A DNA stretch of 39,435 nt from Nemertoderma westbladi (taxonomy: Eukaryota; Animalia; Xenacoelomorpha). The stretch lies in the NCBI GenBank assembly GCA_032718475.1, contig JAUCBJ010000026.1, forward strand, positions 1 through 39,435. Direction: 5' to 3'. Below, one piece after another: positions 3,382-39,435 of this stretch (position 1 is the first letter of the stretch; every line of letters begins with the position of its first letter). Made by a program: the position numbers and the translations under genes. The notes beneath the pieces are model-generated. The model saw only the letters and a list, made by a program, of their open reading frames with translations, was not told the DNA's origin and made no database searches.

Positions 3382-3506
3382 AAATAGTACTTTATTTTTG
3401 TAAAATAAATAGTTATTGCCAAATAAATAAACTAAATATTTAATTTTAAAAAGTAAATATTTTAAACGAGATAATAATTGATCTTCCTCATTCAGATATT
3501 TTTCCT

Positions 3507-9297: not shown

Positions 9298-10453
9298 CTA
9301 GGTCGAGCGAACTCGGACAGTGGAAATGAGATCCTTCCAGGCTTCCCGATTCTCCATAGTTGTCGCAATTTCGTTTCTCCCAAGTTCAGTATCCCTTTCA
9401 AGTTGATCTATATATGTTATGGCAGGTCGTCCACGACTACGCTTTCCATGAGTTGGTTGCCAGAGAAGTAGATCTGGTATGACCTCGTCTTTACTTCGCC
9501 AGCAGTGCCCACTGAATCTTAATCTGCGTTCACGGAGGGTGGTTGATACAGGTGGTATTGTACCATAAAGCTCGGCGTTTGTCATGTGTTGTCTCCAGCT
9601 GATGTTTAGGGCTGCCCTTAGTAGTCTTGTGTAGCAACCATCAATTTGTTGTTCAAGTGATTTAGTCAGTGTCCAGGTCTCACCCCCGTATAAAAATACA
9701 CTTTCCACTGTGGCTCGAAAGAACTTGGTCTTCAGGTGCCTGGAGAGATCTGATTTCCAGATGGTATCCATTTTTGATAGAGCTACCCAAGCCTTTGCTT
9801 TCCTAACTTCTATGTCCTTTTTGCTACTCTCTATCCATGATCCAAGATACTGGAAGTCATCGACCTGCCTTAGTTGATTATTATCAATGGTTGTCAAGTT
9901 TCCATCAACATTAAAGGTCATGAATTCGGTCTTGGTAGCATTTATATGCAATCCAACCTCCTTAGCAGCCCTCTCCACTTTATTTAGTAGAAGCTGTGCA
10001 TCTGCTAGCGTATTAGAGAGCAGGGCGATGTCATCCGCAAAGTCGGTGTCTGTGACTGTAGTTGCCGGATATCTACTACTTCTGCGTTCTTGAAGTGTGA
10101 ATCCCAGATCTTGACCCTTTGTGGCCGTCCACATTGCGTAATCCAGCACAATTACAAATAGTAATGGTGCTAATGTGTCACCTTGCAGTACGCCAGCCAG
10201 GATTGAGAAAAACTCAGTTTCACCATCTGGTGAGAGTACATGCGCTTCTGTGTCACAATATAGCAATCCAATGCCAGCAACAATTACTTCTGGTATTCCA
10301 TAAGCTCTTAGGATTTCAAGCATTTTACCTCTATGGATGGAGTCGAATGCCTTCTTGAAGTCCACAAAAGTCATGACTGCGGGGAGATTCTTTGACTTAA
10401 TTCCTTCAATCAGTCTCCGTAGTGCAAGTATCTGAGCTATTGTTGATCTACTT
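9298..10453 (-). pseudogene. RTE ORF, C-terminal part (reverse transcriptase core and C-terminal domain)
   Basis: Motifs FVDFKKAFDSI, GVLQGDTLAPLLF, DFADDIAL, FQYLGS and LRFSGHCWR. The first ~30 aa of ORF-track entry 9298..10545 come from the insertion. Confidence 0.93.
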
Positions 10454-10456
10454 GGT

Positions 10457-13400: not shown

Positions 13401-13462
13401 TCCACTTTCTTACCCAATGGAAATGTTGTTGTTATAATCTAATATTGGGGCGGCTTTCTCTC
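10457..13462. mobile_element. 3,006-bp non-coding insertion, probably a non-autonomous DNA transposon (family unassigned)
   Basis: Flanked by GGT (10454-10456 and 13463-13465). Removing it restores ...QNGFRP-SRSTIAQIL. Termini GGGATAAA...TTTCTCTC form only a 6/8 inverted match. No recognisable ORF. Confidence 0.8.
11900..11962 (-). other. Degenerate tRNA-like sequence inside the insertion
   Basis: Minus strand reads TAGGCTAGTGG...GTGGGTTCGAAACCCA (A-box and T-arm/B-box-like). Confidence 0.4.
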
Positions 13463-15348
13463 GGTCGAAATCCGTTTTGGCTCTTACGCAGTAGTTTCTC
13501 TATGTGAGGCCTAATCCTATATAGAATCATTTTATTGTATATTTTGGCAGCTACCACAAGCAGACAGATCCCACGATAGTTTGTTGGTATGCCGAGGTCT
13601 CCTTTCTTGGGGAGAGGCTTTAGTTGACCTTTAGTGAAAATTGGTGGTGGCTTTTCCCCTTTTAACATCCGGTTGCAAACATTCAATAATGGTCTATTTA
13701 GCACTCCGGTTTTCCATACCTCCGCTGGGATTTCATCTAATCCACTCGCTTTATTATTGGACATGCTTTTAATGCTTCTTTGGAGTTCGGCAGGTGTGAA
13801 GTCCCCTGTTTCTATAGGTAGTGTCTTGTCATATATTTTCCTTGTAGGGCTGACCTCGATGTTTGGTGGCTGCCCAAGCAAGTTGCTGAAGTGATTTTTC
13901 CACTTTCCAACACGTTCTTCAGGACTATCGGCTTTGAGGCGCCCCTTTGCACAACTTTTCCGACCAGATACCTCATTTACAGTTTGCCAGGTAAGTCTTG
14001 ATTGTTGCTGTATGTGAGCAGTTGTAATTGCTTCAGTTTTATCCTGTATGTACTTTTCCTGGCTGATGTTATAGGCCAATTTAAGATCGTCCTTAGCTTT
14101 CTCAACCTTGTTAATGTTTTCGGTTGTTGGTTGTTCGGTTTTAACTTTGTAGGCAATCTTAAGATCTTCTCTCTTACAAGTAACCTCAGAGTTTTGCCAT
14201 GGCACATACTGTTTTCGTTTAGGTTTCTGGGGGATATGCCTCTTAGCTGATTCCTTGTGGGCTGTTATTATATTCTGGTATATTGAATCGGTGGATTGGT
14301 CTTCATCCATTGACTGAAGTGCTTCAAAGCGGTTTTGAACTTCTACTGTATAAGCATCCTTTACTGCATTGTCAGTTCTGAGTTTCTCCCAGTCATAGTT
14401 GATTTGCTTGCTTGTCCTGGGTTTGCTGGCTCTCAAACTGAGTCTGATCTCTGCAGTCACAATTCTGTGGTCCGAACCAATTAGGTTGAACGAGCTGTAT
14501 GCCTCGCAGTTGATCATGCTGTTTCTCCACTTTTTGTTTATAAGGATGTAATCCAGTTGTACTTTGGTTCCATTAGGGTATTGAAAGGTCCATAGCTTCC
14601 CCTTATTCTTTTCGAATGTGTTGTTTGTTGGTATCAATTCACATTCTTCCATTAGGTCTAAAAGTAAGTACCCATTTCTGTTAGAACTGGTGTTATAGGT
14701 GTAACCCTTGATGTCTTCTGGGCCAATTTGCGCATTCAGGTCACCAGCAATGACTTTAACATTGTGTTTCGGGATGTCCTTAACAAGTCCAGTCAGTTCT
14801 TCATAAAACTTGACTGCTTGTTCTGGTTCTGATGCATTGGTTGGACTGTAGCAACATATAACTGTTGTCTTGGGATTCCCATCAAATGTTGCGATCATAA
14901 CCCTGGAATTTATAGATTCGACGTTGTTTATGGTCTTAAGTGCAAATGGGCTTAGCAGAATTCCTACTCCACCAATTGATGCATTGGCCGAGTTTCTTAC
15001 TGCTGAGCTTGTTACTAACGTCCATCCATTTCCAATGTCATTGTACTTCATGGCAGTGTCTTCATGACAAATCCGATGTTCTTGGATGCAGATGATGTCG
15101 ATGTTATATTCCATTGCCAGAGCGACCATGTCACCCTGTTTGCTCTGTGCTTTCAGCGTGCGTGCGTTCATTGTAGCAATATTTAGTGTCTTTTTACATT
15201 TCAACAGGTTGGTTCTTCTTTCTTCTCTGTCTTCTGTTCCAGTAGCCAATTTATCGACCCCAGCCTGGTGTACCACTGAGGGACGCGGTCCTTGTTGACC
15301 CGGGCGACGACCGAGCCGGTATTTCTCCTGGAGGGTTCTCATACTCAT
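13463..15348 (-). pseudogene. RTE ORF, N-terminal part (AP endonuclease and start of RT)
   Basis: Motifs ATMNARTL, ICIQEHR, GGVGILL, AGDLNAQIG, QLDYILI, GSDHRIV, KASGLDEIPAE and NYRGICLL. Confidence 0.93.
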
Positions 15349-16069
15349 ATCTTTCAGTTGCGGGGGTAAACCGCTTGTGGTCGCAACTCCTACAAGCGTC
15401 TTCGCAGTAGGTCGCCGTTGGTTGATTACCTTCCGCCGACCTTGTCAGCATGTCTAGCCGTTGGTTTTATCTAGTAAGGAAAAGTTATTTCATTTGGAGA
15501 AACAAAACACCGACTTATTTCCCTTTAAACTTCGCTCACACTTTCTATATGCAGCGGAAGTTATAACGCGGATAAAGTTAGTTTATATGACAGACACTTT
15601 ACTATTTCAAAAAAGAAAACCAGAAATAAATAATTAATGGAAACTAATCAACAATCAGCACCATAACTACAACAGTAAACGACTCTATGGCTAAGTTTGT
15701 TAACGAAATTATCTGTACAAATAAATCTCAAAATTAAATTACTCTATATACACATACTATGCTGTTACTTACAATATATATATATATATATCTAGTATAT
15801 ACACAAAGTAAATAATTTATTCCAGTTTGACTTAATTTATAAGAAAACTAAATAATAAATAACACAGCCGACGCTAATAAATAAATATAAATATCTATAT
15901 AATGTTAACAGTAATAATATTATTATGCAATAGTTGGAGCAATTTGTAGATTTCTTCTGTATTTATGTTAGACCGGGCGGATACTGAAAAATAATCACCG
16001 CGTAATGACTAGTTTTATTGAGTAGTGTGATTTAAAGTAGAAGTTTTAAATGTAAATATCACACCCATT

Positions 16070-16268: not shown

Positions 16269-16479
16269 TAAGAATAAAAAAATGAGAAATATTATATGTT
16301 TCACTTCCGGCACTCGTAACATTTTACGTAAAAAAAGCAACTATATTTCCCCAATATATTAAATAATTATTATCTGATAGAAGATAAATATAAAAAAATA
16401 TAAATAATATAAATACGAACATAATTATTTTCGTACCGACTGGCGGTGCTTCATCAGATATAGGTCTGTAGGTAGGTTA

Positions 16480-17034
16480 AATACCACCAGAAAATTAACC
16501 CCTAAAGAAAAATCACTGACTAACATTCCCCTTCCATACGTAAAAGATCTAACGGAAGATTTAGAACGTTTATGTAATCGTTACAATATCGGCACCTACT
16601 TTCAACCCGGTACATCCATTGTATCAATTATCTGCAAAGGACACAAACCCAAAAAACCCCCAAACTCCGTAACATACAGTATACCTTGCTCATGTGGGAA
16701 ATTTTACATAGGAGAATCTAGTTATACAAAGGACGTCCGACAAAAACAACACACCGCAGACATAAAACATAGTAGAATCAAACAATCAGAACTCACCGCC
16801 CATATCATCACATCACAACACACACCCGACTTTAATAACTCCAAAATACTGCACAGAGGACTAAACCACACTTTAAGACGAAGAATTCTAGAAAGTTTAT
16901 TTATAAAAGAAGGAGGTGACAAAGTAATTAACGGTAGATTATCAGTGAACGTATCATCAATATTCGTACCATTTCTACGCGGTATCCAAGATTTCTATAA
17001 CAGGGCCCAGAACCACAAAAAACATACACACTAA
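16480..17034 (+). pseudogene. Penelope GIY-YIG endonuclease domain (open frame, no start codon)
   Basis: Hand translation gives IPLPYVKDLTEDL...VTYSIPCSCGKFYIGES...RQKQH...SELTAHIITSQHTPDFNNSKIL...RRRILESLFI...IN, matching the PLE linker and GIY-YIG domain with CCHH residues. Absent from the ORF track. Confidence 0.88.
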
Positions 17035-17255: not shown

Positions 17256-17585
17256 AGAAACTATTAGTTTTCATAATGCATAAAATTAGTTAAAGATACA
17301 TACTGTATAACTCTTCATGCTTCATCAACTTTATACTGTACATACAATACAATTATAACAGACCTAATCATATTAGATTTATCATACAGTTCCACAGTTA
17401 CCGTGTCATTACTGCTATATACCTACACTGTACTCGTAGTCAGAATTCAGAATGCCTAAGTACTGAAGTATCGCTATGTTAATATTACAATTACTGTATT
17501 TACATCTGAATGTTATTAATCATACTTATGTGTTTCCCTTTCTATTATATTGTACCCTTATCATTAGTATTTTGTTAACCTACCT

Positions 17586-17642: not shown

Positions 17643-17813
17643 TATAATCTCGCAACAAATTTAATTATATTTATACTATGAATCAACCACCATTAACTCA
17701 ATTAATTATCGCTATAATTATTTTCAAAATTTATTTTGGGTTTTAGTACAAATAACAATGCCCTCGAGTACAGGACGAGTTAACGGATCAACATAACATA
17801 GTTTATACTGTGT

Positions 17814-20800
17814 GTACAGAGGTGCCGGTACCTTATCTGTACAGAGGTACCGGTACCTTATCTGTACAGAGGTACCGGTACCTTACCTGCACAGAGGTAC
17901 CGGTACCTTATCTGTACAGAGGTGCCGGTACCTTATCTGTACAGAGGTACCGGTACCTTATCTGTACAGAGGTACCGGTACCTTATCTGTACAGAGGTAC
18001 CGGTACCTTACCTGTACAGAGGTACCGGTACCTTATCTGTACAGAGGTACCGGTACCTTACCTGTACAGAGGTACCGGTACCTTACCTGTACAGAGGTAC
18101 CGGTACCTTATCTGTACAGAGGTGCCGGTACCTTATCTGTACAGAGGTGCAGGTACCTTATCTGTACAGAGGTACCGGCACCTTACCTGTACAGAGATAC
18201 CGGTACCTTATCTGTACAGAGGTACCGGTACCTTATCTGTACAGAGGTACCGGCACCTTACCTGTACAGAGGTACCGGTACCTTACCTGTACAGAGGTAC
18301 CGGTACCTTATCTGTACAGAGGTGCCGGTACCTTATCTGTGCAGAGGTACCGGTACCTTATCTGTACAGAGGTGCCGGTACCTTATCTGTATAGAGGTGC
18401 CGGTACCATATCTGTGCAGAGGTACCGGTACCTTATCTGTACAGAGGTGCCGGTACCTTATCTGTACAGAGGTGCCGGTACCTTACCTGTACAGAGGTAC
18501 CGGTACCTTATCTGTACAGAGGTACCGGTACCTTACCTCTACTGAGGTACCGGTACCCTTATCTGTACAGAGGTACCGGTACCTTACCTTTACAGAGGTA
18601 CCGGTACCTTATCTATACAGAGGTACCGGTACCTTATCTGTACAGAGGTACCGGTACCTTACCTGTACAGAGGTACCGGTACCTTACCTGTACAGAGGTA
18701 CCGGTACCTTATCTGTACAGAGGTGCCGGTACCTTATCTGTGCAGAGGTACCGGTACCTTATCTGTACAGAAGTACCAGTACCAGTACCTTACCTGTACA
18801 GAGGTACCGGTACCTTATCTGTACAGAGGAACAGGTACCTTACATGTACAGAGGTACAGGTACCTTATCTGTACAGAGGTGACAGTACCTTATCTGTACA
18901 GAGGTGACAGTACCTTATCTGTACAGATGTACCGGTACCTTATCTGTACAGAGGCACCGGTACCTTACCTGTACAGAGGTCCCGTACCTTACCTGTACAG
19001 AGGTACCGGTACCAGTTCTTTACCTGTACAGAGTTACCGGTACCAGTACCTTACCTGTACAGAGTTACCGGTACCAGTACCTTACCTGTACAGAGTTACC
19101 GATACCAGTACCTCACCTGTGCAGAGTTACCGGTACCTTATCTGTACAGAGGTGCCGGTACCTTATCTGTACAGAGGTACCGGTACCTTATCTGTACAGA
19201 GGTGCCGGTACCTTATCTGTACAGAGGTACCGGTACCTTATCTGTACAGAGGTGCCGGTGCCTTACCTGTACAGAGGTACCGGTACCTTATCTGTACAGA
19301 GGTACCGGTGCCTTATCTGTACAGAAGTACCGGTACCACCAGTACCTTACCTGTACAGAGGTACCGGTATCTTATCTGTACAGAGGTATCGGTACCGGTA
19401 CCTTACCTGTACGTACAGAGGTACCGGTACCTTACCTGTACGAACAGAGGTACCGGTGCCTTATCTGTACTGAGGTGCCAGTACCTTATCTGTGGTACCG
19501 GTACATTATCTGTACAGAGGTACCGGTACCTTATCTGTACAGAAGTACCGGTACTAGTACTTTATCTGTACAGAGGTAACGGTACTTTACCTGTACAGAG
19601 GTACCGGTACCTTATCTGTACAGAGGTGCCGGTACCTTATCTGTACAGAGGTACCGGTACCTTACCTGTACAGAGGTGCCGGCACCTTATCTGTACAGAG
19701 GTACCGGTACCTTACCTGTACAGAGGTACCGGTACCTTATCTGTACAGAGGTGACAGTACCTTATCTGTACAGAGGTACTGGTACCTTATATGTACAGAG
19801 GTGCCGGTACCATACCTGTACAGTGGTACAGGTACCTTACCTGTACAGAGGTACCGGTACCTTATCTGTACAGAGGTGACAGTACCGTATCTGTACAGAT
19901 GTGCCGGTACCTTATCTATACAGAGGTACCGGTACCTTACCTGTACAGAGGTACCGGTACCTTACCTGTACAGAGGTACCGGTACCTTATCTGTACAGAG
20001 GTACCGGTACCAGTTCTTTACCTGTACAGAGTTACCGGTACCAGTACCTTACCTGTACAGAGTTACCGGTACCAGTACCTTACCTGTACAGAGTTACCGG
20101 TACCAGTACCTTACCTGTACAGAGTTACCGGTACCAGTACCTTACCTGTGCAGAGTTACCGGTACCTTATCTGTACAGAGGTGCCGGTACCTTCCCTGTA
20201 CAGAGGTACCGGTACCTTACCTGTACAGAGGTACCGGTACCTTATCTGTACAGAGGTATCGGTACCTTACCTGTACAGGGGTACCGGTACCTTATCTGTA
20301 CAGAGGTATCGGTACCGGTACCTTACCTGTACAGAGGTACCGGTACATTATCTGTACAGAGGTGCCAGTACCTTATCTGTACAGAGGTACAGGTACCTTA
20401 CCTGTACAGAGGTACCGGTACCTTATCTGTACAGAGGTGACAGTACCTTATCTGTACAGATGTACCGGTACCTTATCTGTACAGAGGCACCGGTACCTTA
20501 CCTGTACAGAGGTACCGGTACCTTACCTTTACAGAGGTACCGGTACCAGTTCTTTACCTGTACAGAGTTACCGGTACAAGTACCTTACCTGTACAGAGTT
20601 ACCGGTACCAGTACCTTACCTGTACAGAGTTACCGGTACCAGTACCTCACCTGTGCAGAGTTACCGGTACCTTATCTGTACAGAGGTGCCGGTACCTTAT
20701 CTGTACAGAGGTACCGGTACCTTATCTGTAGAGAGGTGCCGGTACCTTATCTGTACAGAGGTACCGGTACCTTATCTGTACAGAGGTGCCGGTACCTTAC

Positions 20801-22859
20801 CTGTACAGAGGTACCGGTACCTTATCTGTACAGAGGTACCGGTGCCTTATCTGTACAGAAGTACCGGTACCACCAGTACCTTACCTGTACAGAGGTACTG
20901 GTACCTTAGCTGTACAGAGGTATCGGTACCGGTACCTTACCTGTACGTACAGAGGTACCGGTGCCTTATCTGTACTGAGGTGCCAGTACCTTATCTGTGG
21001 TACCGGTACCTTATCTTACAGAGGTACCGGTATCTTATCTGTACAGAAGTACCGGTACCAGTACATTACCTGTACAGAGGTACCGGTACCTTATCTGTAC
21101 AGAAGTACCGGTACCAGTAATTTATCTGTACAGAGGTAACGGTACTTTACCTGTACAGAGGTACCGGTACCTTATCTGCACAGAGGTGCCGGTACCTTAT
21201 CTGTACAGAGGTACCGGTACCTTACCTGTACAGAGGTGCCGGCACCTTATCTGTACAGAGGTACCGGTACCAGTACCTTACCTGTACAGAGGTACCGGTA
21301 CCTTATCTGTACAGAAGTACCGGTGCCAGTACCTTATCTGTACAGAGGTACCGGTACCGTATCTGTACAGAGGTGCCGGTACCTTATCTGTACAGAGGTG
21401 CCGGTACCTTATCTGTACAGAGGTACAGGTACCTTACCTGTACAGAGGTACCGGTACCTTATCTGTACAGAGGTGACAGTACCTTATCTGTACAGAGGTG
21501 ACAGTACCTTATCTGTACAGATGTACCGGTACCTTATCTGTACAGAGGCACCGGTACCTTACCTGTACAGAGGTACCGGTAGCTTACCTGTACAGAGGTA
21601 CCGGTACCAGTTCTTTACCTGTACAGAGTTACCGGTACCAGTACCTTACCTGTACAGAGTTACCGGTACCAGTACCTTACCTGTACAGAGTTACCGGTAC
21701 CAGTACCTCACCTGTGCAGAGTTACCGGTACCTTATCTGTACAGCGGTGCCGGTACCTTATCTGTACAGAGGTACCGGTACCTTATCTGTACAGAGGTGC
21801 CGGTACCTTATCTGTACAGAGGTACCGGTACCTTATCTGTACAGAGGTGCCGGTACCTTGTCTGTACAGAGGTACCGGTACCTTATCTGTACAGAGGTAC
21901 CGGTACCTTATCTGTACAGAAGTACCGGTACCAGTACCTTACCTGTACAGAGGTACCGGTACCTTATCTGCACAGAAGTACCGGTGCCAGTACCTTATCT
22001 GTACAGAGGTACCGGTACCTTATCTGTAGAGAGGTGCCGGTACCTTATCTGTACAGAGGTGCCGGTACCTTATCTGTACAGAGGAACAGGTACCTTACCT
22101 GTACAGAGGTACAGGTACCTTATCTGTACAGAGGTGACAGTACCTTATCTGTACAGAGGTGACAGTACCTTATCTGTACAGATGTACCGGTACCTTATCT
22201 GTACAGAGGCACTTCTTTACCTGTACAGAGTTACCGGTACCAGTACCTTACCTGTACAGAGTTACCGGTACCAGTACCTTACCTGTACAGAGTTACCGAT
22301 ACCAGTACCTCACCTGTGCAGAGTTACCGGTACCTTATCTGTACAGAGGTGCCGGTACCTTATCTGTACAGAGGTACCGGTACCTTATCTGTACAGAGGT
22401 GCCGGTACCTTATCTGTACAGAGGTACCGGTACCTTATCTGTACAGAGGTACCGGTACCTTATCTGTACAGAGGTGCCGGTACCTTATCTGTACAGAGGT
22501 GCCGGTACCTTATCTGTACAGAGGAACAGGTACCTTACCTGTACAGAGGTACAGGTACCTTATCTGTACAGAGGTGACAGTACCTTATCTGTACAGAGGT
22601 GACAGTACCTTATCTGTACAGATGTACCGGTACCTTATCTGTACAGAGGCACCGGTACCTTACCTGTACAGAGGTCCCGTACCTTACCTGTACAGAGTTA
22701 CCGGTACCAGTTCCTTACCTGTACAGAGTTACCGGTACCAGTACCTTACCTGTACAGAGTTACCGGTACCAGTACCTTACCTGTACAGAGTTACCGGTAC
22801 CAGTACCTCACCTGTACAGAGTTACCGGTACCAGTACCTTACCTGTACAGATAAGGTAC
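17814..22859. repeat. 25-bp satellite (GGTACCGGTACC-TTA-TCTGTACAGA)n with 31-bp variants and recurring higher-order blocks
   Basis: About 5 kb of tandem units. Variants carry an extra CCAGTA or CCGGTA hexamer. Confidence 0.99.
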
Positions 22860-23296
22860 GACAAAAGTATTAAGATATATTTATGCGGATTTAATATAAC
22901 TAATGTAACTTTAGAAAATGTATCAATATATAGTTATATTCACTTTACATCTCTAGAAGATTAACTTTACACCTATACTGAACCTGAAATCCAAATTATC
23001 GCAAAAAAAATTAAAATACTATCATAAAAAACAACTATTTATAGCTGACTGTACCGGTGCAGCAAAAGCAATCAATCAAATAATCAACAACTCCTAACTA
23101 ACTGGGTGGTTTAATATTATATAGATGTAAATGATTTCTACTATGATTCCACACTCTTACTATAGTAAGTCGATCTTACTAAAGTTAAGAAATTCCACCA
23201 TAAATAACAAAAAATTTAATATGATGTCCTACTCTTTCGTTTTGGAATGTTACAATTTTAAAATAAAACTACATTCACACAGGTTGCAATAAAGTA

Positions 23297-23373
23297 CCGT
23301 ATTTACTCGAATAAAAGCCCCCCATACCAATTTAGAAACTTAAACGCCCAGGCTCTTATTCGAGAAAATACGG
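23297..23373. mobile_element. 77-bp Tc1/mariner-type MITE
   Basis: TIRs CCGTATTTACTCGAATAA / TTATTCGAGAAAATACGG, flanked by TA on both sides. Confidence 0.85.
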
Positions 23374-23715
23374 TACTTTACATTGTTCTGATACTCGTTT
23401 CGCTATTTTCACTCTTTACGTTCGTTAATGTAACAAAAACACGGTTTTACACAAAGTTAATAAACTAATATTGTTTTTATAATAAACGTAAATAGCTAAA
23501 AATAGTTTAAATGTAAAAATGTTTATAAATTCAAAAGATTGAAAATGAAAATTCAACAGATAATTTAAATAATACTTTTTAATAAATTAATTATGGTTTA
23601 GCAACAATTATACAACATTTGTAGCACCTTAAGTTAATTGAATACGGTAAACATTTGTTTAACAAATATTAAACAGGATTAGCTATAATTTCTTATAATT
23701 TAGTGATTAATCATT

Positions 23716-28200: not shown

Positions 28201-29850
28201 TAGACTGACGTTAGTGTAACTGTCTTCTAGAAACTCCTGCGATAGAGTTTCTACTTCCGTTCCGGCGTATAAAACCTGCTGAGTTCTAGAAGGAATGTGA
28301 ATAGTTAGGAATAAAGTTGAGTCGACTCCAGCCGAACTCTTATAGACTAAATAGTTAGGGAGTAGAACTTCTTTAGGAGTTAGATTATCATTATCCGTGA
28401 CGTCACGACCTAACTGGCCGCCGGTGTTCGCCCCCCAGGTATAAACTCTACCGTCCCTGGACACCCCGACACTATGGCGCCGACCTCCCCAGACAGACAC
28501 TAAACATCTGTTGGAGAGACTCGCGACCAGACAGGGCGAGTCTCGGTCGACGGCGTCGCCCAGACCCAACTGGCCAGACTCACCGGCGCCCCAGGACCAA
28601 ACCTCGTCCGAGTCTGGGAGACTCCTGGGGGAACTGATAGTCTCAACGACACTCCCAGCACCGACACTACAGGGTGCACCAACACTACAGGGTGCACCGA
28701 CACTACAGGGTGCACCGACACCACTTGGTGCACCCATAGCCGGTGCTACAACACAACTAACCTCAGCACCAACCCCAACCTCGCCTATCGCAGCTGCCGC
28801 TATATTCTCCATACTCATTATATCCCAACTCAACTGACTGAAACTTTCGTTTCTATCCACAGACAGACTGTCTCCATGGTAACCTCTAGACGACGTCACT
28901 ACCCCATGATTGGCCCATTTCTCGTCGTGTATCGCGTAAGACGGCCGAGAGAAGAATTCCAACGCGGAGTCCGTATCAATAATGGGACTCTTGGGAGCGA
29001 ATAATTCATCAGAAAGTCCGACATTCAGCACATCTGGTCTACCCAGTTCCTTAGAATGATTAACAGTTGATGTAGAAGGAGTTGATGAGCTAATAGAAGA
29101 TATTGTTGATGAGTTATTGACAGACGATTCGTCTTGGAATAGTTTAATATCGTCTATAAACACAATGTCGCTCTCTAGCTTGGACTCCTTGCGGACTATG
29201 GCTACGGAATGGGACCCGCCGGCGGCTATTCGGAGGACCTTTCTGTGTCTCAACGCCGACACAGGGGTCGGGAACAGGGCCGTACGAGTCGCCCCTAAAC
29301 CTAACTGACATCCCGAACCCCAGGAGTACAGAGAACCTAATGTTGTTAACGCTAGTGTGTGAGCGGAACCACACGCCACCTGTTCCACTAAGAGTTCCGC
29401 GTCGTCGGTTATCGGAACGCTAATAGGGCTCCGTACTGAGTGTTCCGCCCCGTTTCCGCACTGACCCAGCCGAGAGTCGCCCCAGCAGTAGAGGAGTTTA
29501 TCCGATGTTATAGCGGCGCTGTGATACGAGCCGCACTGAACGTCCGTCGCGAAAGAGGTGGTGAAACTATCCAATAAAATCGGAGAGGCGACTTCGTTGG
29601 ATACGGAGGATAAACCCAGTTGCCCGTAGGTGTTGTCACCTGAGGCGTATATCTGTCCGGAGGTTGTGAGGAACAAGGAATGATTGGAACCCAGTGAGAT
29701 GGTAGCGATATCTATGTGGTGGAGGCTGGGGTGGGAATATATGTTGGTTTGAGTCGCCGTATCCCATAACATAACTGAACTCTTCGAAGGTGCCGCAATC
29801 TTTCCATTATCAATCTCAATAGTTTCCGATGTATTTTTTGGATTTTCCAT
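25222..29850 (-). CDS. ALS2: Alsin (Rab5 GEF: RCC1-like repeats, DH/PH, MORN repeats, VPS9), single exon, 1542 aa
   Basis: RCC1 repeats (GSNHSLFL..GQLG, CGSYHS..CWG, VWSWGAGESGQLG), PH (HWFLLFNDVLVH), MORN repeats (YEGVWLSGKPQGKG and others) and VPS9 (MDELFPLFEFVVVRARI...LTTLKAAYFQI). This domain order is diagnostic of alsin. Confidence 0.93.
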   Translation of the reverse strand: MENPKNTSETIEIDNGKIAAPSKSSVMLWDTATQTNIYSHPSLHHIDIATISLGSNHSLFLTTSGQIYASGDNTYGQLGLSSVSNEVASPILLDSFTTSFATDVQCGSYHSAAITSDKLLYCWGDSRLGQCGNGAEHSVRSPISVPITDDAELLVEQVACGSAHTLALTTLGSLYSWGSGCQLGLGATRTALFPTPVSALRHRKVLRIAAGGSHSVAIVRKESKLESDIVFIDDIKLFQDESSVNNSSTISSISSSTPSTSTVNHSKELGRPDVLNVGLSDELFAPKSPIIDTDSALEFFSRPSYAIHDEKWANHGVVTSSRGYHGDSLSVDRNESFSQLSWDIMSMENIAAAAIGEVGVGAEVSCVVAPAMGAPSGVGAPCSVGAPCSVGAPCSVGAGSVVETISSPRSLPDSDEVWSWGAGESGQLGLGDAVDRDSPCLVASLSNRCLVSVWGGRRHSVGVSRDGRVYTWGANTGGQLGRDVTDNDNLTPKEVLLPNYLVYKSSAGVDSTLFLTIHIPSRTQQVLYAGTEVETLSQEFLEDSYTNVSLNEESLDSVSTPRVLEFLNFLVIRQIYIGEEQSACLINNNSDFYSNILYKFSCNELIFTREISLICGKIIKPLLISDAFVSSASPLLSKLVTEIDAKLNGIFMFTSCNSSCCYRILDTGGKPNSLPIISNISNISPIYIQYMYLFTDLIAYQGFQSISKILNNLFSKSKNVLQELLGDSSPQNLNISCQFKEVLQKPLQIIINYCQLLKEIITLYPSHTNTYKLINESLTTWDSLRLDWSLNLRLAETTRVFWDSIPSRLCESLRTQSRRLLLDGKQSGLELLGSPRFSTHWFLLFNDVLVHCQFSRHQILPLATVWVESLDENQHKKPAFIFRTPEESLTILFPSIEVKNNWFKTATNAIYTVLYGGRTLLTKSTTNLPSSRTSTHTYYNHVAYKDALYEGVWLSGKPQGKGVLTWPTGRNYRGHFYNGLHQGYGVMSTPSPGNQSPEVYRGLWLEGLQHGLGRLTYGNGDVYDGDFHAGRREGHGGLTTPLGPLGPTRGLYVGQWKGDHRHGYGVHDDQREKYIGMWKEDCRHGNGCIVTIDGLYYEGVFKENKIVGVGYLLTDDDHMYRGEFSGTSMNGKGLFILPNGDSIDGSFYGSFESEIKISGNYKRNSTSPGIPKTYGKFIVPAEDKWEGIFARYLSQVGVVDSTDTGKVWEQTAALINSSKQLLQTADNDSKEEINILESLEWIPDQPKGKIKLSDLDKVSSYIESACGCIYHPLGKLVGDVIHGYQATYSGIGGHRRLLRQAVDEFRSIVDRIYAIIRLSFPGLPQYRRNSVGGCLDTSHPRLVILDDDADSQPMVSSQSLLHPIIFPKVYPHIFTLFALNHDDELYWGRVTRLNLQSDVRLLTYLDVNRKFWNPALLSDRRIETSSCPDNPESQPSYTKSIRELQLISTALYPQSKLSVLEQTFHLLNSEVGGWLGASHRWNMDELFPLFEFVVVRARIHHLGSEVDVISEFMDDSLVNGHYGIMLTTLKAAYFQILTENVV

Positions 29851-30523
29851 AAATCATATTGTCATAGCCTAGACTTCATAGAAGCATACCGGTACCGGCT
29901 GACCGGTAACATTAGGCCTACAATTTACCACTAGAAGCAATTTCGTTTATTACAGTATTATGTAGCCTATAGTACTACCGCAGCCTTTAGTTTAGGCTGT
30001 TACAGTGTTAGGCCTAGTATAATTTTGCGGCACGGTATGCTGTTGGGTGTATAATATGCTTTATTTACCGTTCATCCCGAGATCTGTTATTAAACGACCG
30101 AGCGCACCGAGGGAGGTAAATAAGTCTCCATATTTTGGGAGTGGAGGTCCGAAACCATAATTCAAAGTGGAAATGGAGGCCCAAAGCCTTAATTATAAAA
30201 CAGTCATGTAACCCCAACCTTAAATATTTTGGATCCTAAATTCCACAAAATTTCTTAGATTAGAACATCGGGACTTTAGAGCTACTAATGACAGTTTTAA
30301 TTAGGGTTTGGACCTGACCAACAAACCCAACCACAAAAATAAACCAATAAATACAAGTTAAAGTGCTGTACGGTACGCTAGACCTACTATTAATATACTG
30401 TAAGTCTATAGGAGGGCAATCCGCAGGGGGGGGGGGGGGGGGGGGTAGATACGCCTAGGACACCGGCAGCATTCTTAATGCAACTGCTTCCAGCATGCCC
30501 ATTATAGATAGATAATTGAAACC

Positions 30524-30791
30524 TGAAAAAGGTGGACAGTCCAATCACTAATAAATAGCATTGCTTTAATACGTTTCTGATTGGTCAGACTATTACAGTA
30601 TTATATATGTTTTTTGTGCATGTGTCCTGTCCACCTTTTTCAAACACACATCTTATTCCCAATTATGTAACTAAGAAAGCGGAAACTTGAAAAAGGTGGA
30701 CAGACCAATTGCTACAAACTGCTTTGCTTAATACGTTTCTGATTGGTCTGTCCGTTGTCCATGTTTTCTGTGTCCAGTCCACCTTTTTCAA
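30524..30791. repeat. Two tandem copies of a short foldback/MITE-like unit (30524-30642 and 30687-30791)
   Basis: Each is bounded by TGAAAAAGGTGGAC...GTCCACCTTTTTCA, with an inner CCAAT/ATTGG pair. Confidence 0.75.
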
Positions 30792-30931
30792 ACACCCGTA
30801 TGCTGTTATGCTGTAATGGTACCTTACGTGCTTACGCGTACAGCCTTTGCATACCATCTTAGCCTGCTACCGGCACCGGTATCAGCCTATACTGCTATAA
30901 CAGTATAATTTTACTATAGGCCTATATATTA

Positions 30932-33078
30932 GGGTTTGTCTTTTTGCCGTATATGTGTACGTATTTTAAATAGTTCCCGTAGCCTACCGTACAGCCGTAG
31001 GCTACCGTATGTGGGACGTATTTGCCCGTATTCAGGAAGCAGTAGTCAGTGCACTGCAGCACTACGCACTATGGCTAAATCTGACGGTACGTGCCTGGCC
31101 TATTTATCCATGTTTATAGACCTGTACGTACATAGTACAGGTAAATAATACAGCGAGCCTGCTGTACTGTGCTAAGATTATACAGCTCGCGCTTTGTGGT
31201 GTGAACCACGACGTTCGTTTCGGTACGAATGCTTTAAAGGGACCAGCCTGGGCGCATCTCTGCCTTGCATCGTTAAATGAGTACTGAAGTTTACTCTAAG
31301 GCGTATAGTTCTGGGCCAGGCTGCAAACCACCACTGAACCGCGCACAACGTCCGCGCACAATTTTTCAGCCGCGCTAAATCTGACAATATACCGCGCATG
31401 GAATATTTCATATACTACTATATAACTGAATATATACTACAGTATTTCAAAACCGCGCACAACGCGTTGCGATTTTTGCACTCCATTTGCAGCCTGGGTT
31501 CTGGGGGACCGCACTGGAAATAAGTCGCCAGACTTTGTGCTTATAATCACTGGCCTAATAGTCGAAGAAAATGTAGGCCTGCTTTTTACTTTTACATTTA
31601 CATATATTCTAGACCTCTTATTACATTTATATATATTCTACACTAGACCTCAGGCTGAGTTTTTGTGAAGTCTTAAATCGATTGCAATTACTCAGTCAGC
31701 CTCTATGTGTTATTGCGACTTGTTAGCTTATCCAATTCCGCTAACACGAACCCATAAAGTCAACCGTTAAGCAATATTGGGAGCACGAGGTTGATTACCA
31801 ATATCAACCTCGTGTCACCCCAATAAAGTGGGAAGGAGAAACGCACAATAGGGGTCAGGGGTTACACCCCTGACAGAGAGAGAATAGCAAGGGTGAAGGG
31901 AAGCACTTCAGAGGGGGGCAAAAGGGTGACAAGTAGGATATTAGCCAATAGGGGGGAAGCATCGACTGGGTACAGTAATACGGCCAAACCGTGCAATATA
32001 TATTACCAGTTGATTGCATCAGTTATCTCAGTTTTAGTTAGTCAGATCAGTTAGGGTGGAACGGCAACATCTATTACCGTCCACTACCGTCCACATCATT
32101 TAATCAGTATTTACCGGTATATCATTTAGTCAGTTTAACCGTGCTTGCACTACTCATTTATTATACTTATACATATGAACTCCAGAACTCTCAACTTAAC
32201 TGACCCTTTTCATACACACGGCGGGGACGCGTAAATAGATAAACCCAACGGATAAATCGGGATCCGTAGATCCCGTCACACGACTAGGGGACATGTTTAC
32301 TTTGCACATATTTCTTTCGAATTGACACTTAACATAAGTTCAATTCACGTGCTGCGCGAAGGCCCCACTTCGTGTTATACTAGATTTACTTGAATGTACG
32401 TATGTACTAACTATACTGTAGTTATTTAAAAAGCACAGTAGGCCTACACATGCGCAAAGTATACCAACAGTATCATACCTTTTTATAAAACAATGATGAA
32501 TATTGCCCCTACGGTTATTTTGATATTATTCACATTCCTATTTTATCAATAACAATCAGTTGAATTATTTTATTTATTAATTACCGAAACTTCACCACGC
32601 GATTTTTAAGTATAACACAACTACAGTAAATGTAATTATTTGTCGTATTTGTATTTAAAAAGAACATACAGTATAGGTGGCGGCACCTTAGTGTTACAAA
32701 CTAAATCGTCCTTTATCGTCTGCTCGTTGATTACACTGGAGGGGCAATTCAACTTTCAGCCGTCATCGAACAGTATAATACTTATTATGATTATTTCATA
32801 ATAGTTATTATCATTATTTTATAATAATAATACTTATTATTACATAATAATGAAAAATAATAAAAAATGATATAAAACTCGCAGAGAATTTCCAAACCCC
32901 TGGTACCGGGAGCATAGAACACGTAGTATAAAAAGTTGCCAGGTACAGAACCGTTAGCGGTAAGCAGTGCACTGATTCTGCTTCCTGAATACGGGCAAAT
33001 ACGTCCCACATACGGTAGCCTACGGTAGGCTACGGAAACTCTTTCAAATACGTATACATACGGCAAAAAGACAAACCC
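30932..33078. mobile_element. About 2.15-kb non-autonomous DNA transposon with about 120-bp TIRs
   Basis: 30932-31057 is the reverse complement of 32964-33078 with few differences. No transposase ORF and no clear TSD. Confidence 0.75.
31316..31497. mobile_element. 182-bp MITE with an 8-bp TSD (hAT-like)
   Basis: TIR CCAGGCTGCAAA / TTTGCAGCCTGG; TSD GTTCTGGG at 31308-31315 and 31498-31505; internal repeat AACCGCGCACAACG. Confidence 0.85.
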
Positions 33079-33440
33079 AAGTGCTTAGATAACAATAAAC
33101 AATACGAATATCGAACCACAAGTCACAACAAATATATCACAGTAACATTAACACAATAAAAGTACAGGTAGGGGGGGGGGGGGGGGGGGGTGGGGGCAAC
33201 GCGTCCAGCCGCCACCCCCCCCCCCCCCCCCCTGTCTCTAGAAAGTAGTAATTTAGTCACCTTTATGACAGTAATATTACGTCATTAAATATACGGTGAC
33301 GATTCACAATATTTACAGACCTTGTCCATCAGACGTTGTATGTATAATCATAAAAATAACGGTAGAAAAATAATATATAATATGATATGGTGATAAAAAG
33401 TTCAATATTAACTGATAATAACTGAGACATGCTCATATCT

Positions 33441-33969
33441 GCCACAGTGGAAAGTGTATTTTTATACGGGGGTGAGACCTGGACACTGACTAAATCACTT
33501 GAACAACGAATTGATGGTTGCTACACAAGACTACAAAGGGCATCCCTAAACATCAGCTGGAGACAACACATGACAAACGCCGAGCTTTATGGTACAATAC
33601 CAGCTGCATCAACCACCCTCCGTGAACGCACATTAAGATTCAGTGGGCACTGCTGGCGAAGTAAATAGGTTGCCTATTTTAATTGTTCGAAGCCCCCGAA
33701 GGCCCTTAGCACGACCTTCTGTTTCAGTTACCAGTCACCATCTTTCAGTGATTATCTAATTTATTTAATTTTATCTAAAGATTTATCTAATTTAGGGGAG
33801 GGGGGTGGGTCAACACCTATCTGATGACATCTGATTTAGGGGAGGGAGGGGGTCAACATTTTGGAGAAAAGTGCAGACGTCATACTTGGACGGCCCCTAT
33901 GGAGAATCGGGAAGCCTGGAAGGATCTCATTTCCACTGTCCGAGTTCGCTCGACCTAGTAGTAGTAGTA
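33441..33969 (+). mobile_element. 5'-truncated, rearranged copy of the same RTE family
   Basis: 33441-33665 matches the reverse complement of about 9491-9714. 33899-33969 matches about 9290-9358, including the (TAG)n tail. The middle is replaced by unrelated DNA. Confidence 0.92.
33780..33898. mobile_element. Single end of a PIF/Harbinger-like MITE
   Basis: Ends in GACGTCATACTTGGACGGCCCCT, preceded by GGGGAGGGGG repeats, resembling Harbinger-type MITE termini. The partner end was not found. Confidence 0.45.
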
Positions 33970-34175
33970 AAGATGTCAAGGCTGAAGGAGTTTCTATTCG
34001 AATAGGGCATAACGCATTCCACACTAACGGGGCAGCTACAGCGAAGGAACGGCGACCATAACTTTAACTGCAAATAGTGTTACAGTTAGGTACCGGTACT
34101 GCCAACAGCAGCATGTTAGCGGAGCGCAGATTACGTGTGGGATGGTAAAGTGAAAGTAATTCAGACAAGTAATCA
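33970..34175 (-). mobile_element. Decayed L2/CR1-group LINE ORF2 C-terminal fragment
   Basis: Minus-strand translation DYLSELLSLYHPTRNLRSANMLLLAVP...*SYGRRSFAVAAPLVWNAL. Confidence 0.75.
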
Positions 34176-34288
34176 TCTGCCCTCTAGATAGACAAGCTGT
34201 AGGCCTGCCGACAATAAGACCAAGAAAGATACCGGTACTAGGCCTATACAGTTTTTATCCCTGAGTCAGACTACAGCCAGACAGCACA

Positions 34289-36850
34289 ATGTCCCCGCTC
34301 TTGATCTCCACAGTTTTCATCGTTCTGGGTCGTTTCGTTGTGGCAGAACCATCCGATCCGCGGGGTAACCCTGCAACCCACCCAATACCCGTATTGGACT
34401 GGTTTGCGGAACACCCTGTCGCTACCGTTTCGAACTGCCGCGCCGAATCGACGGAGATGTGGTCGGCGAGTGGATTTAGCCTCTACTGCTCTCGTCGGGG
34501 AAGAAGATCTTGGGTCTCCTCTCCACGATCTAGAGGCCTAATCGGTAAACTCTGTCTACTGTCTCTGGCTGGGGATATTGAGACCAACCCAGGACCCAGC
34601 AGGACGCGGGCCCCGAAGATCAACTGTCCCGTCTGTCAACGAGGAACAAACTCTCGGAGTAAGATCGTCCAATGCGAGAGTTGTGACACATTTGTACATT
34701 TAAAATGTTACCGTAGGAAACGCAGTAATTTATTCTCCACCAGAAACAATCTTGAACCAAGTTTTCTCTGCAATAGCTGTATTTTTACCGAACTTCCCTT
34801 TCATGATACAATTTTAGAATCAGAAACCGACGATTCATTTCTCACATCGCCTCTGCAAACTCCAAGTGATGCTGAGAGTGAAACTTTTAATTTTTTTAAG
34901 AAAAAAGGTCTGCATTTTTTGCACTTAAACGCACGATCTCTGCTTCCAAAACTTTCCGAAATTCGTATTTTAATCAATAAATCGAACCCAGCAGTTTTAA
35001 CAATCTCTGAAACTTGGCTCGATGATAGTGTTTCTGATGGAGAAATTTATATTGATAATTACGTAGTTTTACGTAAGGATAGGGACAGACACGGTGGTGG
35101 TGTCTGTACTTACATTCGATGTGACTTAGCTTTTAATCGTAGGGAAGATTTAGAGACTTGTGACGAAGTTTTACTGGTGGAACTTTTACTTCCTAAAACT
35201 AAACCTATTTTAATCGGTACTTTATATCGGCCCCCTAAACAATCAGATTTTTTGCAAAATTTTGAAAATACAATTTTATGTAATCTTAGGTCAGACTGTG
35301 AAATATATTTCTTAGGTGATTTTAATATCTGTTACCATCACAAAGCATCCCCCATCTGTAAACAGTACCAAAGTATTTTAAATTTGTTTGGTTTAAAACA
35401 AATTATTCGAGATTCTACCAGAATTACCAGTAAAACTTCTACTTTACTAGATCACATCCTTTGTAATAATACCGATATTATTTCTCAATCTGGGGTTTTA
35501 CCTATAGGTCTAAGCGATCATTTTATAGTTTTTTGCACAAGAAAGACACAAAAATATTTTTTCGGGGATCATAAAACAGTAACAGTTAGGTCTATGAAAA
35601 ATTACAGCAAGGAACGCTTTTTAAGTTTGTTAGTTAATTCTGACTGGGAACCCTGTTTTAAGGCCGCTGACATTAACCTTGCGTACACTGTTTTTAAAGA
35701 TATATTTTTAAAGGCACTTAATACTGTAGCACCAATTAAAGAAATTAGTCTTAAACAACGCACTGAGCCCTGGATGACCTCGGGTATTCTTAGTAATATC
35801 AGAGAAAGAGATAACTATTTGTATAAATTTAGGAAATACCGTGTTTTAGCTGATTATAATAATTACTGCAAATATAGAAACCTTGTCCAACGGGAAATAA
35901 AAAAAGCTAAATCTGAATATTTGTACAACAAAATAAGTGAGAATAAAGATAATCCTAAAAGTCTATGGTCTACCCTAAAATCTTTAGGTTATAAAAACCT
36001 TAAATCTAAATCGAATATTGTTCTGCAAGATAACGGTGAGCTGATTCATGATCATACTCTAGTTAGTAATTTATTTAATAATTATTTTACTAATGTTGCC
36101 TCTAATTTAGTTAAGAAGTTACCGTTATCAAGTAATAAATATAGTATAGGGTCCGAAACTCTAAATAATTTTTATTTAGAAAAGTTACAAAATTCAGAAA
36201 AGTTATTTTTAAAACCCGTTTCTGAGGATTTCGTTTTTAAAAATCTACTTAGCCTATCAGCCTCAAAAAGTACCGGTCTAGATCTAATACCTGCCCGTTT
36301 TCTTAAGGATGGTGCTGAAGTACTTAAAGTGCCTATTACTTTTATTATTAATTACTCTATCGTAGATAATGTAGTACCAGACGAACTGAAATTAGCTAAG
36401 GTTGTTCCTCTGTATAAAAAGAATAGTAAAGTAGAACCCTGTAATTACAGACCTGTTAGTATCTTAAGTATTGTATCTAAAATTCTAGAACGTTCTGTTT
36501 TTCTACAGCTGGAGGCACATCTTAGTAGGCTAAATCTGATCTATGAACTTCAGTCCGGTTTTCGTAAATCATATTCTACAGACACCTGCCTTATTAACTT
36601 AACTGATACAATTAGATGTAATAACGCAAAGGGTTTATATACTGGTATGGTAATGTTGGACCTACAAAAGGCTTTCGATACTGTAGATCACGAAATTCTG
36701 CTTGGTAAGTTAGGCCTGATGGGTGTAGGTTCTATAGACTGGTTCAAGTCCTACCTGTCAGACAGAAGTCAAACTGTAGTCATTAGCAAATCGCAGTCTA
36801 CTGTACAAGAGATTACCTGTGGGGCGAGCCACGAAGTGAGAGAGCCTTAG
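34289..36850 (+). mobile_element. CR1/L2-group LINE ORF: hydrophobic leader, 2A motif, PHD finger, AP endonuclease, RT truncated at about 36820
   Basis: [14 protein letters not shown]; CPVC..CESC..HLKC..CNSC; HLNARSL, ISETWL, GGGV, YRPP, LGDFN, LDHI, SDH; [26 protein letters not shown]. The frame ends at EITCG, before the expected PQGS and YADD motifs. Confidence 0.93.
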
Positions 36851-37110
36851 CGTAGTGGTACCATTAATCAACCTGTGGGGCGAGCCACGAAGTGAGTGAG
36901 CCTTAGCGTAGTGGTACCATTAATCAACCTGTCGTTCTGTCGTTCTGTCGCGTTTTTTTTCAGTATTTTATTTTAAACGTTAATAACTCGGCCAATCCTT
37001 GATGAAATCTATCCAAACTTGGTACACATGTTGTTTAGCAAAAGTTTGAAAATTTTCGAAGTAGAATTTGCGTGGGGCCTTCGTGCAGCATCAGTGTAAC
37101 TGTTATTGCA
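36821..37110 (+). mobile_element. Helentron-associated (DINE-1/HINE-like) element with a duplicated 56-bp head
   Basis: 56-bp tandem duplication, (CTGTCGTT)n microsatellite and subterminal inverted pair CACGAAG/CTTCGTG. A related end occurs inverted near 32349-32375. Confidence 0.5.
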
Positions 37111-37517
37111 GTTATAATAAATTTATTTATCCAAATTTAAAATGCGTTAAATTATTATTACTGTAGGATAAATCAGCTGGTTTTCTGACAAATTTTGCAA
37201 TTCTGCATGTACCATGTGTACCGGTACTGTCAGGCTGTACTCAATCCCTGAATCGAGAATCCTGCTAGGGTGCATTTATAGTCAGATGCCGTCCGATCCG
37301 ATCCGATCCGATGCATTTCGGCAATTATTGTAGCTACAACTGTCAGACTGCAGACTGTACAAGCCTAGCTGCTTAGGCTAGGCCTACTTCTGTTTTGCCT
37401 AACACTGAACGCAGTCTGGTTGTATGACTATTGCTGTATTGGCCTATTGCATTAGGCTATTGTATATGGCATGGCAGTACTGCAGTATGCAGGTATGGCA
37501 GTACTGCAGTACACAGT

Positions 37518-38380
37518 ATGGGATCATTCGTAGCTCTGTAGCTGACTGTGGTGTTCAGAAGGAAATCGGACGCGCGTTGGATGTCCTGGAATGGAGTCTA
37601 CCGACCAACTTGCAGGGTGAGGCTGTCCCTCTGCAGCTCTGATCCTGGGCGGTGGAGACTGTGCTGATGGCGGCGGAAGCGGGAAGACCGGGGCATTCTG
37701 TATCCCGATACTACAGCTGGTCCATGAAACTCTACGGTACAAACTCCGAGATGGAAAACTCGATGGGAAATCGGGGGGAAGAACTAGGCCTACGAAATTT
37801 CAGTTGAACTCATTCGATAGAGCGATAGAGGTGACCAGTTGGCCATCTCCCCGGACGGTTGCTGTGTCATGCGCGTGGCCAGAGGAGTTGGCACGGTACC
37901 CGGACGACTAAAGGAATAGTCGGATCCGGTCGTTTCGTTACTATTCAGCTATTACGAGGCGACGGTAAAGGACGAGGTGCGAGGGCCCATGCCGGGTTGG
38001 TTGGAGCACCGGAAGCGCGACACTCGATATCGGGACTGATAAAAATAGTTTTGGCTTCGGAGGAAACGGTAAGAAGTGTTTCGGGCGGCATTTTGACGAC
38101 TATGGACAACCATATGGACTAGGCGACGTGATCGGTTATCGGATCGATCTGGATGTGGGCACAATTGGGTACCGGTACAGTAAAAACGGAAGTGATCTCG
38201 GGAAAGCTTTCGACAGTTCGAGATTCCCGCTAATTTACGCAAACTCCCGTTATTCCTGTATTCCCGCAGTCTGTGGTCTGTCGGTATCTTTAAAGAATGC
38301 TGAAATTATGTTTATTTTCGCCGAATTTATCCGTTTATCTGCGCATCTTCTTTCCGGGTACACCATTGTATCCCGGGCGC
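37518..38380 (+). pseudogene. DDX1: DDX1 pseudogene fragment (Q motif, Walker A, SPRY domain), intronless with multiple frameshifts
   Basis: Across frames: MGSF..DCGVQKEIGRALDVLEWSLPTNLQGEAVPLILGGGD..GSGKTGAFCIPILQLVHETL..WHGTRTTKG..YYE..CRVGWS..DIGTDKNSFGFGGNGKK..FDDYG..SKNGSDLGKAFEIP..LFPAVC..KNAE. A SPRY domain directly after motif I is characteristic of DDX1. Confidence 0.9.
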
Positions 38381-38560: not shown

Positions 38561-39435
38561 CCTAAAGTAAAGATGTGTAATCTGATTATTATTATGATTG
38601 CTACATAACATGGTATAGAGACTATCTTATCTTATAACCGTTATCAACAGTGTTGTAGTCATAATTTGCAACGTTTCATTGAAATAATCACTTGAAATAT
38701 TCGAATACATTCTACCCATAATAATTAATACTAATTATTGTAAAACTATTTTTCTATGCGGAAATCCAGACTGAAAGTCTCTCTCTTGATATCTGTTGTT
38801 CCTTTGCGTCAATATAATTAGAGTGTATTTAACAAATTTATTGTATCCGTTGAAATGTATTTGTAAACAATAATTTAGTTGTCATGATTTTTAAGTAAGA
38901 TTAGGTTAATTAAATAAAGCCTTTATAAAATTATTATTATTATCCTGGGGGAAACTTTACAGCTTTATCGAAACTCTATAGCTCCATGGTAAGTATAGCT
39001 CCACGAAACTCTATGGGGGGGGGGGGGGGGGGGGTAGTATACTCCAGGTATTAAACTAAACTGATCCTTTTCTTATATATGATGGACAGATTGTCGGATA
39101 GTCAGAAAGACCAAATTTAATATACTATCTAGTTAAGTTTTTGAATTTATTTTTTGAAATATACCAGAACATGACTAGCTATTTTATTTTTAAAAAATAA
39201 TGTTCTAGAACGAATATTTTTTGAAATATTTAAAAAATTATCAAACACTAATGTTTAGTAACTTTATTTTTTCATATCAATAAAAAGCTTGTCTTGCAAG
39301 GATTCCAAATACAACTAATTACCCAACTAATTAGTATAAACAATTTCGTGGGAGGGTTTACGACGTACCTCCAGTTCCCCCTCCCTCCTCCAAGCCAATT
39401 ACTAGCTTTACCTGTATCATGGACGTAGGGAGCAT

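Follow-up and report, generated by a model that had tools for sequence, protein, structure and literature searches.

What mutational process has left the same short scar at many places in one stretch of an animal genome? The question is raised by a contig of the xenacoelomorph Nemertoderma westbladi (GenBank assembly GCA_032718475.1, contig JAUCBJ010000026.1, positions 1–39,435 of the forward strand), hereafter the window, i.e., the whole stretch of 39,435 nt that was analyzed. It contains satellites, pieces of non-LTR (long terminal repeat) retrotransposons, a reading frame for alsin and a decayed fragment of the DDX1 helicase gene, and motifs of the form N5-CAG/CTG-N5 recur in it, in which a variable 5-mer is found on both sides of a constant CAG or CTG filler. 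A first-pass annotation had suggested that they are excision footprints of a transposon. We found that the motif set is a real, well-supported mutational signature and that the motifs are 8-base insertions (5 + 3 nt) at pre-existing single 5-mers. We further consider it probable, at roughly 80%, that they are excision footprints of a DNA transposon of the cut-and-paste type, with CAG...CTG at its ends and a target site duplication (TSD) of 5 bp.

Enrichment of 5-bp duplications around CAG/CTG

The raw window contained 25 N5-CAG/CTG-N5 motifs (14 CAG, 11 CTG), including all 15 sites listed in the first-pass annotation, every one at its given coordinate; the same was true of its two 7-nt forms (37973 and 38269). 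Masking of tandem arrays and homopolymers retained 27,058 nt and removed two of the 25 motifs. The remaining 23 compare with 1.08 expected when all 781 CAG/CTG occurrences had their flanks re-paired, and Markov simulations of orders 2, 4 and 5 (100 each) gave means of 0.96–1.21 and a maximum of 7. In the masked window, the runner-up filler class, CCA/TGG, had 7 motifs, in part the same events read with a shift, and the Transib-type filler CAC/GTG had 3 (0.7 expected). The length of the duplication is fixed as well: the CAG/CTG excess is sharp at a duplication length (k) of 5, there are only 9 motifs against 3.6 expected at k = 4, and CAG is outside the top eight fillers at k = 3 and k = 6. As a control, we used 118 unrelated metagenome loci (645 kb), which were chance matches of a metagenome pattern scan and had no BLASTN match to the window; they contained 23 motifs versus 21.3 expected, i.e., no excess. 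Another metagenome pattern scan, for repeats of this organism, gave 0 matches. CAG and CTG are thus far commoner than all other fillers after correction for composition, as the earlier interpretation required.

The 7-nt class N5-CA/TG-N5 was mildly enriched window-wide (15 versus 3.9 expected), and N5-AG/CT-N5 occurred 9 times versus 3.9 expected, while one-letter fillers were drowned by short repeats. CAG scars with one mismatch (27 versus 13.3 expected) were uninformative, as CAC, CAA, TAG and AAG showed a similar excess.

Some motifs of this kind could arise by chance, replication slippage or assembly artefact. Short tandem duplications of every kind are mildly enriched in the window, and one or a few of the 23 motifs are expected by chance. 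Probably about one of them is such a case, most likely that at 25241, since it sits within the intact alsin reading frame, and simple tandem repeats may account for those at 32178 and 34273. As a general explanation, however, this one is refuted and its probability is negligible: the excess is 21-fold for a single filler, slippage is unable to add a constant foreign 3-mer, and contigs of three samples match the scars letter for letter. A library-adapter artefact was also considered and rejected, as the scars were reproduced in three samples; Tn5 ends finish in CAG but duplicate 9 bp. All site statistics below use 21 distinct sites, from which 17582 (a copy of 16461) and 37499 (with the same 5-mer as the adjacent 37475) were dropped and in which 25241 was kept.

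Empty sites

The region is covered by contigs of four public runs (X1–X4) from three samples, X1 and X3 being from one sample. An inverted paralog (33078–32964) of the segment 30932–31057 has a single CCGTA and lacks exactly the 8 scar nucleotides of CCGTA-CAG-CCGTA (30987–30999). Exactly 8 letters are likewise absent at this site and at TATTA-CAG-TATTA (30591–30603), located inside a dispersed repeat, in contigs of all four runs, these being among the 12 of 89 indels that were listed. In another case, it is the window that has the empty form: a single TTGGA (37577–37581) is present in the window, and contigs of X1 and X3 have 8 additional letters behind 37575 and read TTGGA-CTG-TTGGA. This scar was not found in the contigs of X2 and X4 and is thus present in one of the three samples. 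The first-pass annotation had predicted that empty sites should exist, and they were found, shorter by exactly 8 nt, at 30987, 30591 and 37575 and in the DDX1 alignment described below.

The DDX1 fragment as a natural reporter

A decayed 5' fragment of the DDX1 gene (approximately 37518–38330, plus strand), which lies in a likely multi-copy repeat, served as a natural reporter of insertions. It matched the SPRY domain of human DDX1 with E = 3e-22. With the SPRY piece as query, a word-indexed protein search returned nothing, whereas an exhaustive search returned DDX1 relatives, 28 of 150 of which went into a profile. The alignment was frameshift-tolerant, used a flat insertion cost and two gap settings, and was blind to the motifs. 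At both settings, insertions were placed at 37631 (8 nt; CTCTG-CAG-CTCTG, 37629–37641, a frameshift in the fragment), 37813 (8 nt; CGATA-GAG-CGATA, 37815–37827, ambiguous between a mutated scar and a plain 8-bp duplication), 37937 (13 nt = 8 + 5; CTATT-CAG-CTATT, 37941–37953), 37974 (7 nt; the 7-nt variant CGAGG-TG-CGAGG, 37973–37984), 38209 (8 nt; TTCGA-CAG-TTCGA, 38209–38221), 38256 (net 7 nt; TATTC-CTG-TATTC, 38251–38263) and 38275 (15 nt = 7 + 8; containing the 7-nt variant GTCTG-TG-GTCTG, 38269–38280). Two further blocks were also placed at both settings, one of 6 nt at 38170, which is a TA-CCGG-TA scar, and one of 3 nt at 37786, in a variable loop and uncertain. An 11-nt insertion at 37539, seen at one setting only, corresponds weakly to TAGCT-CTG-TAGCT (37531–37543) at the DDX1 N-terminus. 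In other words, four of the five CAG/CTG scars in the coding part were aligned as insertions at both settings and the fifth at one, and both TG forms were aligned as insertions.

A diverged, parent-like contig without the scars was present in X1, X3 and X4 and aligned with the window over 37540–37744 and 37989–38155. In X4, it lacked 4 + 2 + 1 + 1 = 8 letters at 37630–37641, i.e., at the CTCTG scar. Over the first block, it was 2 nt shorter than the window, which equals the difference predicted from the protein alignment (+8 − 6 = +2), and between the blocks (37745–37988) it was 27 nt shorter, which again equals the prediction (8 + 13 + 7 − 1 = 27, or 30 with the uncertain 3-nt block included). 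Of the 9 to 10 blocks inserted in the fragment, 7 to 8 include a scar of the 5-bp type. The view that the responsible process is a major local mutagen, which had been put forward in the first-pass annotation, therefore holds for the indels of this fragment, among which these scars lead, and does not hold for mutation in general, since substitutions relative to the parent-like contig (~15%, 56 differing letters in ~365 aligned) far outnumber the scars.

The summed contig depth over the DDX1 fragment (300–950 in X1–X3) exceeds both that of the parent-like contig (14–20 in X1 and X3) and that upstream of alsin (22–39), which suggests that the fragment, once scarred, was amplified as part of a repeat, although such depth is no copy number. 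Copies of the fragment in the interval 36970–38380 differ at 0–1 positions over hundreds of bases and look multi-copy. The repeat adjoins a very abundant short repeat that begins near 36970, after a (CTGTCGTT)n tract. The fragment is possibly a gene captured by a Helitron-like element. The parent-like contig is colinear and without introns over the part seen.

Origin of the filler

On the plus strand, the filler is CAG in 12 and CTG in 9 of the 21 sites and is thus strand-symmetric. It copied the flanking 3-mer in 0/21 sites, and in 2/21 it matched the duplication's end in inverted form; on these counts, it belongs to no 8-bp duplication and does not derive from a hairpin. The first count bears on an alternative raised in the first-pass annotation, namely an element with an 8-bp TSD (hAT, KDZ or similar), stereotyped repair of which would trim three target bases and keep three bases of the element end. 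The net gain is indeed 8 nt, the site at 37815 is a clean 8-bp direct repeat and the sole site fitting an 8-bp TSD, and hAT ends carry G at position 3 (PMC1131882). Apart from the absence of flank copies, though, this model needs added assumptions to account for a one-sided, exact loss of three target bases and for the 7-nt forms, in which the filler is shorter and the 5-mer intact. We consider it disfavoured and very improbable.

Target preference

When both orientations were combined, the duplicated 5-mers gave a palindromic, TA-N-TA-like consensus (T/C-A-N-T-A/G), with A at position 2 and T at position 4 in 25/42 symmetrised 5-mers. A two-fold symmetric transposase leads to a palindromic target. 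TA was present at one end of the 5-mer in 13/21 sites, compared with 19% of nearby 5-mers (p = 2.2e-5), and TA within the 5-mer was not enriched (4/21 versus 21%). Such a pattern would mean that each strand is cut at a TA, as happens with Tc1/mariner elements, with the two cuts 5 bp apart. In part, the preference could reflect re-insertion into older, TA-rich scars, and scars do stack. In CTATA-CTG-CTATA and TATAA-CAG-TATAA (30887–30908; starts at 30887 and 30896), the second target overlaps the first scar. The segment 37475–37518 contains CAGTA-CTG-CAGTA, GTATG-CAG-GTATG and CAGTA-CTG-CAGTA-CA-CAGTA, in the last of which (37499–37518) a reused target is present three times, with fillers CTG and CA.

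At least three classes of TA-type scars were also observed window-wide, with peaks at 29854–31110 and 36951–38330, the same places as the 5-bp scars: TA-CAG/CTG-TA (24 in the window outside three long arrays), TA-CCG/CGG-TA (11, plus 7 TA-CCGG-TA) and TA-GGC/GCC-TA (14, plus 8 TA-GGCC-TA). At 37374, copies differ by 5 letters, consistent with the GGC class. A 91-bp miniature inverted-repeat element at 23290–23380, with ends TA-CCGT...ACGG-TA, is a candidate source of the TA-CCG-TA scars.

The abundance of TA-CAG/CTG-TA scars at the same places, together with the 13/21 5-mers that begin or end with TA, raises the possibility that ordinary TA-targeting Tc1-like elements made all of these scars (TA-CAG-TA) and that error-prone, templated end joining added three extra bases of flank. 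Nevertheless, templated inserts vary in length, whereas the observed excess is sharp at k = 5, and 8/21 5-mers have no terminal TA, including CTCTG, CTATT and TTCGA, which are supported by the alignment, and the new TTGGA. We regard this explanation as unlikely.

Distribution of the scars

The scars were densest in the 250 nt upstream of alsin (12 per kb). The alsin gene (ALS2) is an uninterrupted frame of 1543 codons on the minus strand (29853–25222), with ~40% identity to fish and echinoderm alsins, and ACCGG-CTG-ACCGG (29894–29906) is ~40 nt upstream of its start, followed by TATTA-CAG-TATTA (29948–29960) and TGTTA-CAG-TGTTA (29998–30010). Density was 6–7 per kb upstream of and within the DDX1 fragment, where TATTG-CTG-TATTG (37429–37441) lies on the upstream side, 4 per kb at 30105–31110, and 0–0.4 per kb in alsin, the retrotransposon frames and most other stretches. 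Such a distribution would fit targeting of open chromatin at gene starts, with the small counts kept in mind. Beyond the range covered by the first-pass annotation, we found CTTTA-CAG-CTTTA (38955–38967) and AAGTA-CTG-AAGTA (17458–17470). TAGGT-CTG-TAGGT (16461–16473) recurs as ACCTA-CAG-ACCTA at 17582 in a pair of inverted repeats; as both repeats carry this scar, it predates their duplication.

Comparison with known transposon families

In Sleeping Beauty, the nontransferred strand is cut a few nucleotides inside the element and the terminal 3 bp are left between the TSDs, giving TACAGTA or TACTGTA (PMC6943129), and minor fillers include CA and TG (10.1101/659086). The scars described here resemble those of Sleeping Beauty and Tc1/mariner elements in several respects: a TSD is followed by three nucleotides, which would be the end of the element, and a second TSD; CAG and CTG would both come from resolution of a central mismatch; CA and TG are minor fillers; and TA figures in the target preference. 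They differ in that the duplication is 5 bp, variable and not TA, and in that the net gain is 8 nt rather than 5. Because the duplication is not the TA dinucleotide of the IS630-Tc1-mariner superfamily, and 8/21 5-mers do not even end in TA, we did not file the scars as Tc1/mariner. Tc4, a branch of this superfamily, duplicates TNA at CTNAG and provides a precedent for a target stagger widened around an interrupted palindrome, although its duplication is 3 bp rather than 5 bp and it is known from nematodes, arthropods and tardigrades (PMC11071193).

Among other families, hAT5, which the first-pass annotation did not mention, is a group of hAT elements of invertebrates and fish with 5-bp TSDs (PMC12730594, PMC9004415), and the G at position 3 of hAT ends (PMC1131882) is compatible with CAG. 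Transib/RAG1 also has a 5-bp TSD, with CAC ends, GC-rich targets and hairpins on the flanks (PMC1131882). These two are the eukaryotic cut-and-paste groups known to have 5-bp TSDs. It is conceivable that a hairpin-forming element of either group made the scars by standard chemistry, in which case the filler would be hairpin-derived (P) nucleotides. The hAT transposases that have been studied form hairpins on the flanks (PMC5499845) and leave variable footprints complementary to the flank (PMC3499496), whereas the filler here is a constant 3-mer that matched an inverted TSD end in the same 2/21 sites. In addition, the ends here would be CAG and not CAC, and the targets are AT-rich and TA-N-TA-like rather than GC-rich, in disagreement with Transib. 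A hairpin origin with standard chemistry is accordingly highly improbable. hAT5 matches the anatomy of the scars and not known hAT chemistry, and its end sequences and target logos could affect the assignment to a family. The literature searched contained neither an account of excision by hAT5 nor a description of the present scar, Repbase Reports and most subscription papers being outside the reach of this search.

Evidence for and against excision

The interpretation of the scars as excision footprints, which we consider likely, rests on their anatomy, from which the element, the cut positions and the repair are all inferred. Insertion, its length, the filler and the biased target were observed directly; the element itself and its transposase were not found in the window. 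A strict scan of the window for CAG...CTG ends with a 5-bp TSD gave two weak pairs, and a relaxed scan gave 7 pairs, compared with 1–3 in five shuffles, none of them convincing; the best of these was an inverted copy of a retrotransposon end and was rejected as an element. IS630-Tc1-mariner transposases are of the DD(30–41)D/E type; no transposase domain was detected in a Pfam scan of 56 frames of the window, which identified only reverse transcriptases and alsin.

These results weigh against the excision interpretation, and several other observations should be counted with them. No filled site, i.e., an element at the position of a scar, occurred among the contig indels and loose ends listed. 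The empty sites are in paralogous copies and are not alleles of a single-copy locus, and for the three scars upstream of alsin the contigs of X1, X2 and X3 were identical to the window over 29820–30079 (0 differences) and provided no empty allele. Eleven of the 21 sites lack support of either kind, from an empty site or from the alignment. The scar behind 37575 may also be read as 6 + 2, and the site at 37815 reads equally well as a plain 8-bp duplication.

A possible mechanism

The following steps would produce such scars. On insertion, staggered attack 5 bp apart would duplicate the target. On excision, the transferred strand would be cut at the tip of the element and the other strand 3 nt inside, which would leave a 3-nt CAG overhang on each flank. 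End joining would then pair the overhangs across one central mismatch and yield CAG or CTG about equally, and a minority of joins would be truncated to CA or TG. As each scar consists of two copies of the target, it would be open to renewed insertion. A Sleeping Beauty footprint with a 5-bp TSD in place of TA thus predicts a gain of 8 nt, parity of CAG and CTG, 7-nt forms with TG or CA, and a regenerated target. The scar fits two routes equally: direct hydrolysis of the second strand, or a hairpin on the flank whose loop, the 3-nt CAG, is opened on the 3' side.

The enzyme that we favour is a transposase of the IS630-Tc1-mariner-like kind in which the target stagger is wider and each subunit would cut before a TA on its own strand. 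We prefer it to an enzyme, hAT5-like or other, whose first nick is shifted, and it takes about half of the weight that we give to excision as such. More tentatively, and with the balance of probability somewhat against it, we suggest that the scars come from an undescribed IS630-Tc1-mariner-like branch that combines a Sleeping Beauty-type cut (3 nt inside CAG ends, with subunits attacking before TA) with a 5-bp spacing of the two target cuts at TA-N-TA, and that its cycles of inserting and leaving may give rise to more small insertions and frameshifts than any other process at the starts of active genes in this animal.

Other elements of the window

Two satellites occupy a large part of the window. 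One, of 5.6 kb (3506–9129), has 312 copies of an 18-bp unit with 98% identity, and the other, of 5 kb (17813–22860), has a largely palindromic 25-bp unit made of GGTACC/TGTACA words. About 3 kb of other DNA, beginning near 10450, interrupts an RTE-like retrotransposon frame at 9298–15444 (13432–15444 and 9298–10440, minus strand), part of whose 3' end is found again, in inverted orientation, at 33441–33971. The segment 16421–17634 has a 208-codon frame (16408–17034) between 60-bp inverted repeats; the frame had no Pfam match and, by eye, resembles the endonuclease end of a Penelope-type element. A LINE frame of 861 codons at 34265–36850, with a PHD finger, an endonuclease and a reverse transcriptase, is truncated at a 56-bp tandem duplication.

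Implications

Donor cleavage chemistry and TSD length have been treated as linked traits that define families of DDE transposons. Usually, 3-nt staggered cuts are paired with TA (or 3-bp) targets, and 5-bp TSDs with hairpin formers. The scars of N. westbladi combine both, which points to one of two enzymes, a Tc1-like one whose target geometry is new or a hAT5-like one whose cut is new. Moreover, the scar can be read as a mutational signature: with a pattern search of one line, past transposition without a surviving element can be counted, activity dated in pseudogenes, and other genomes surveyed for the same process.

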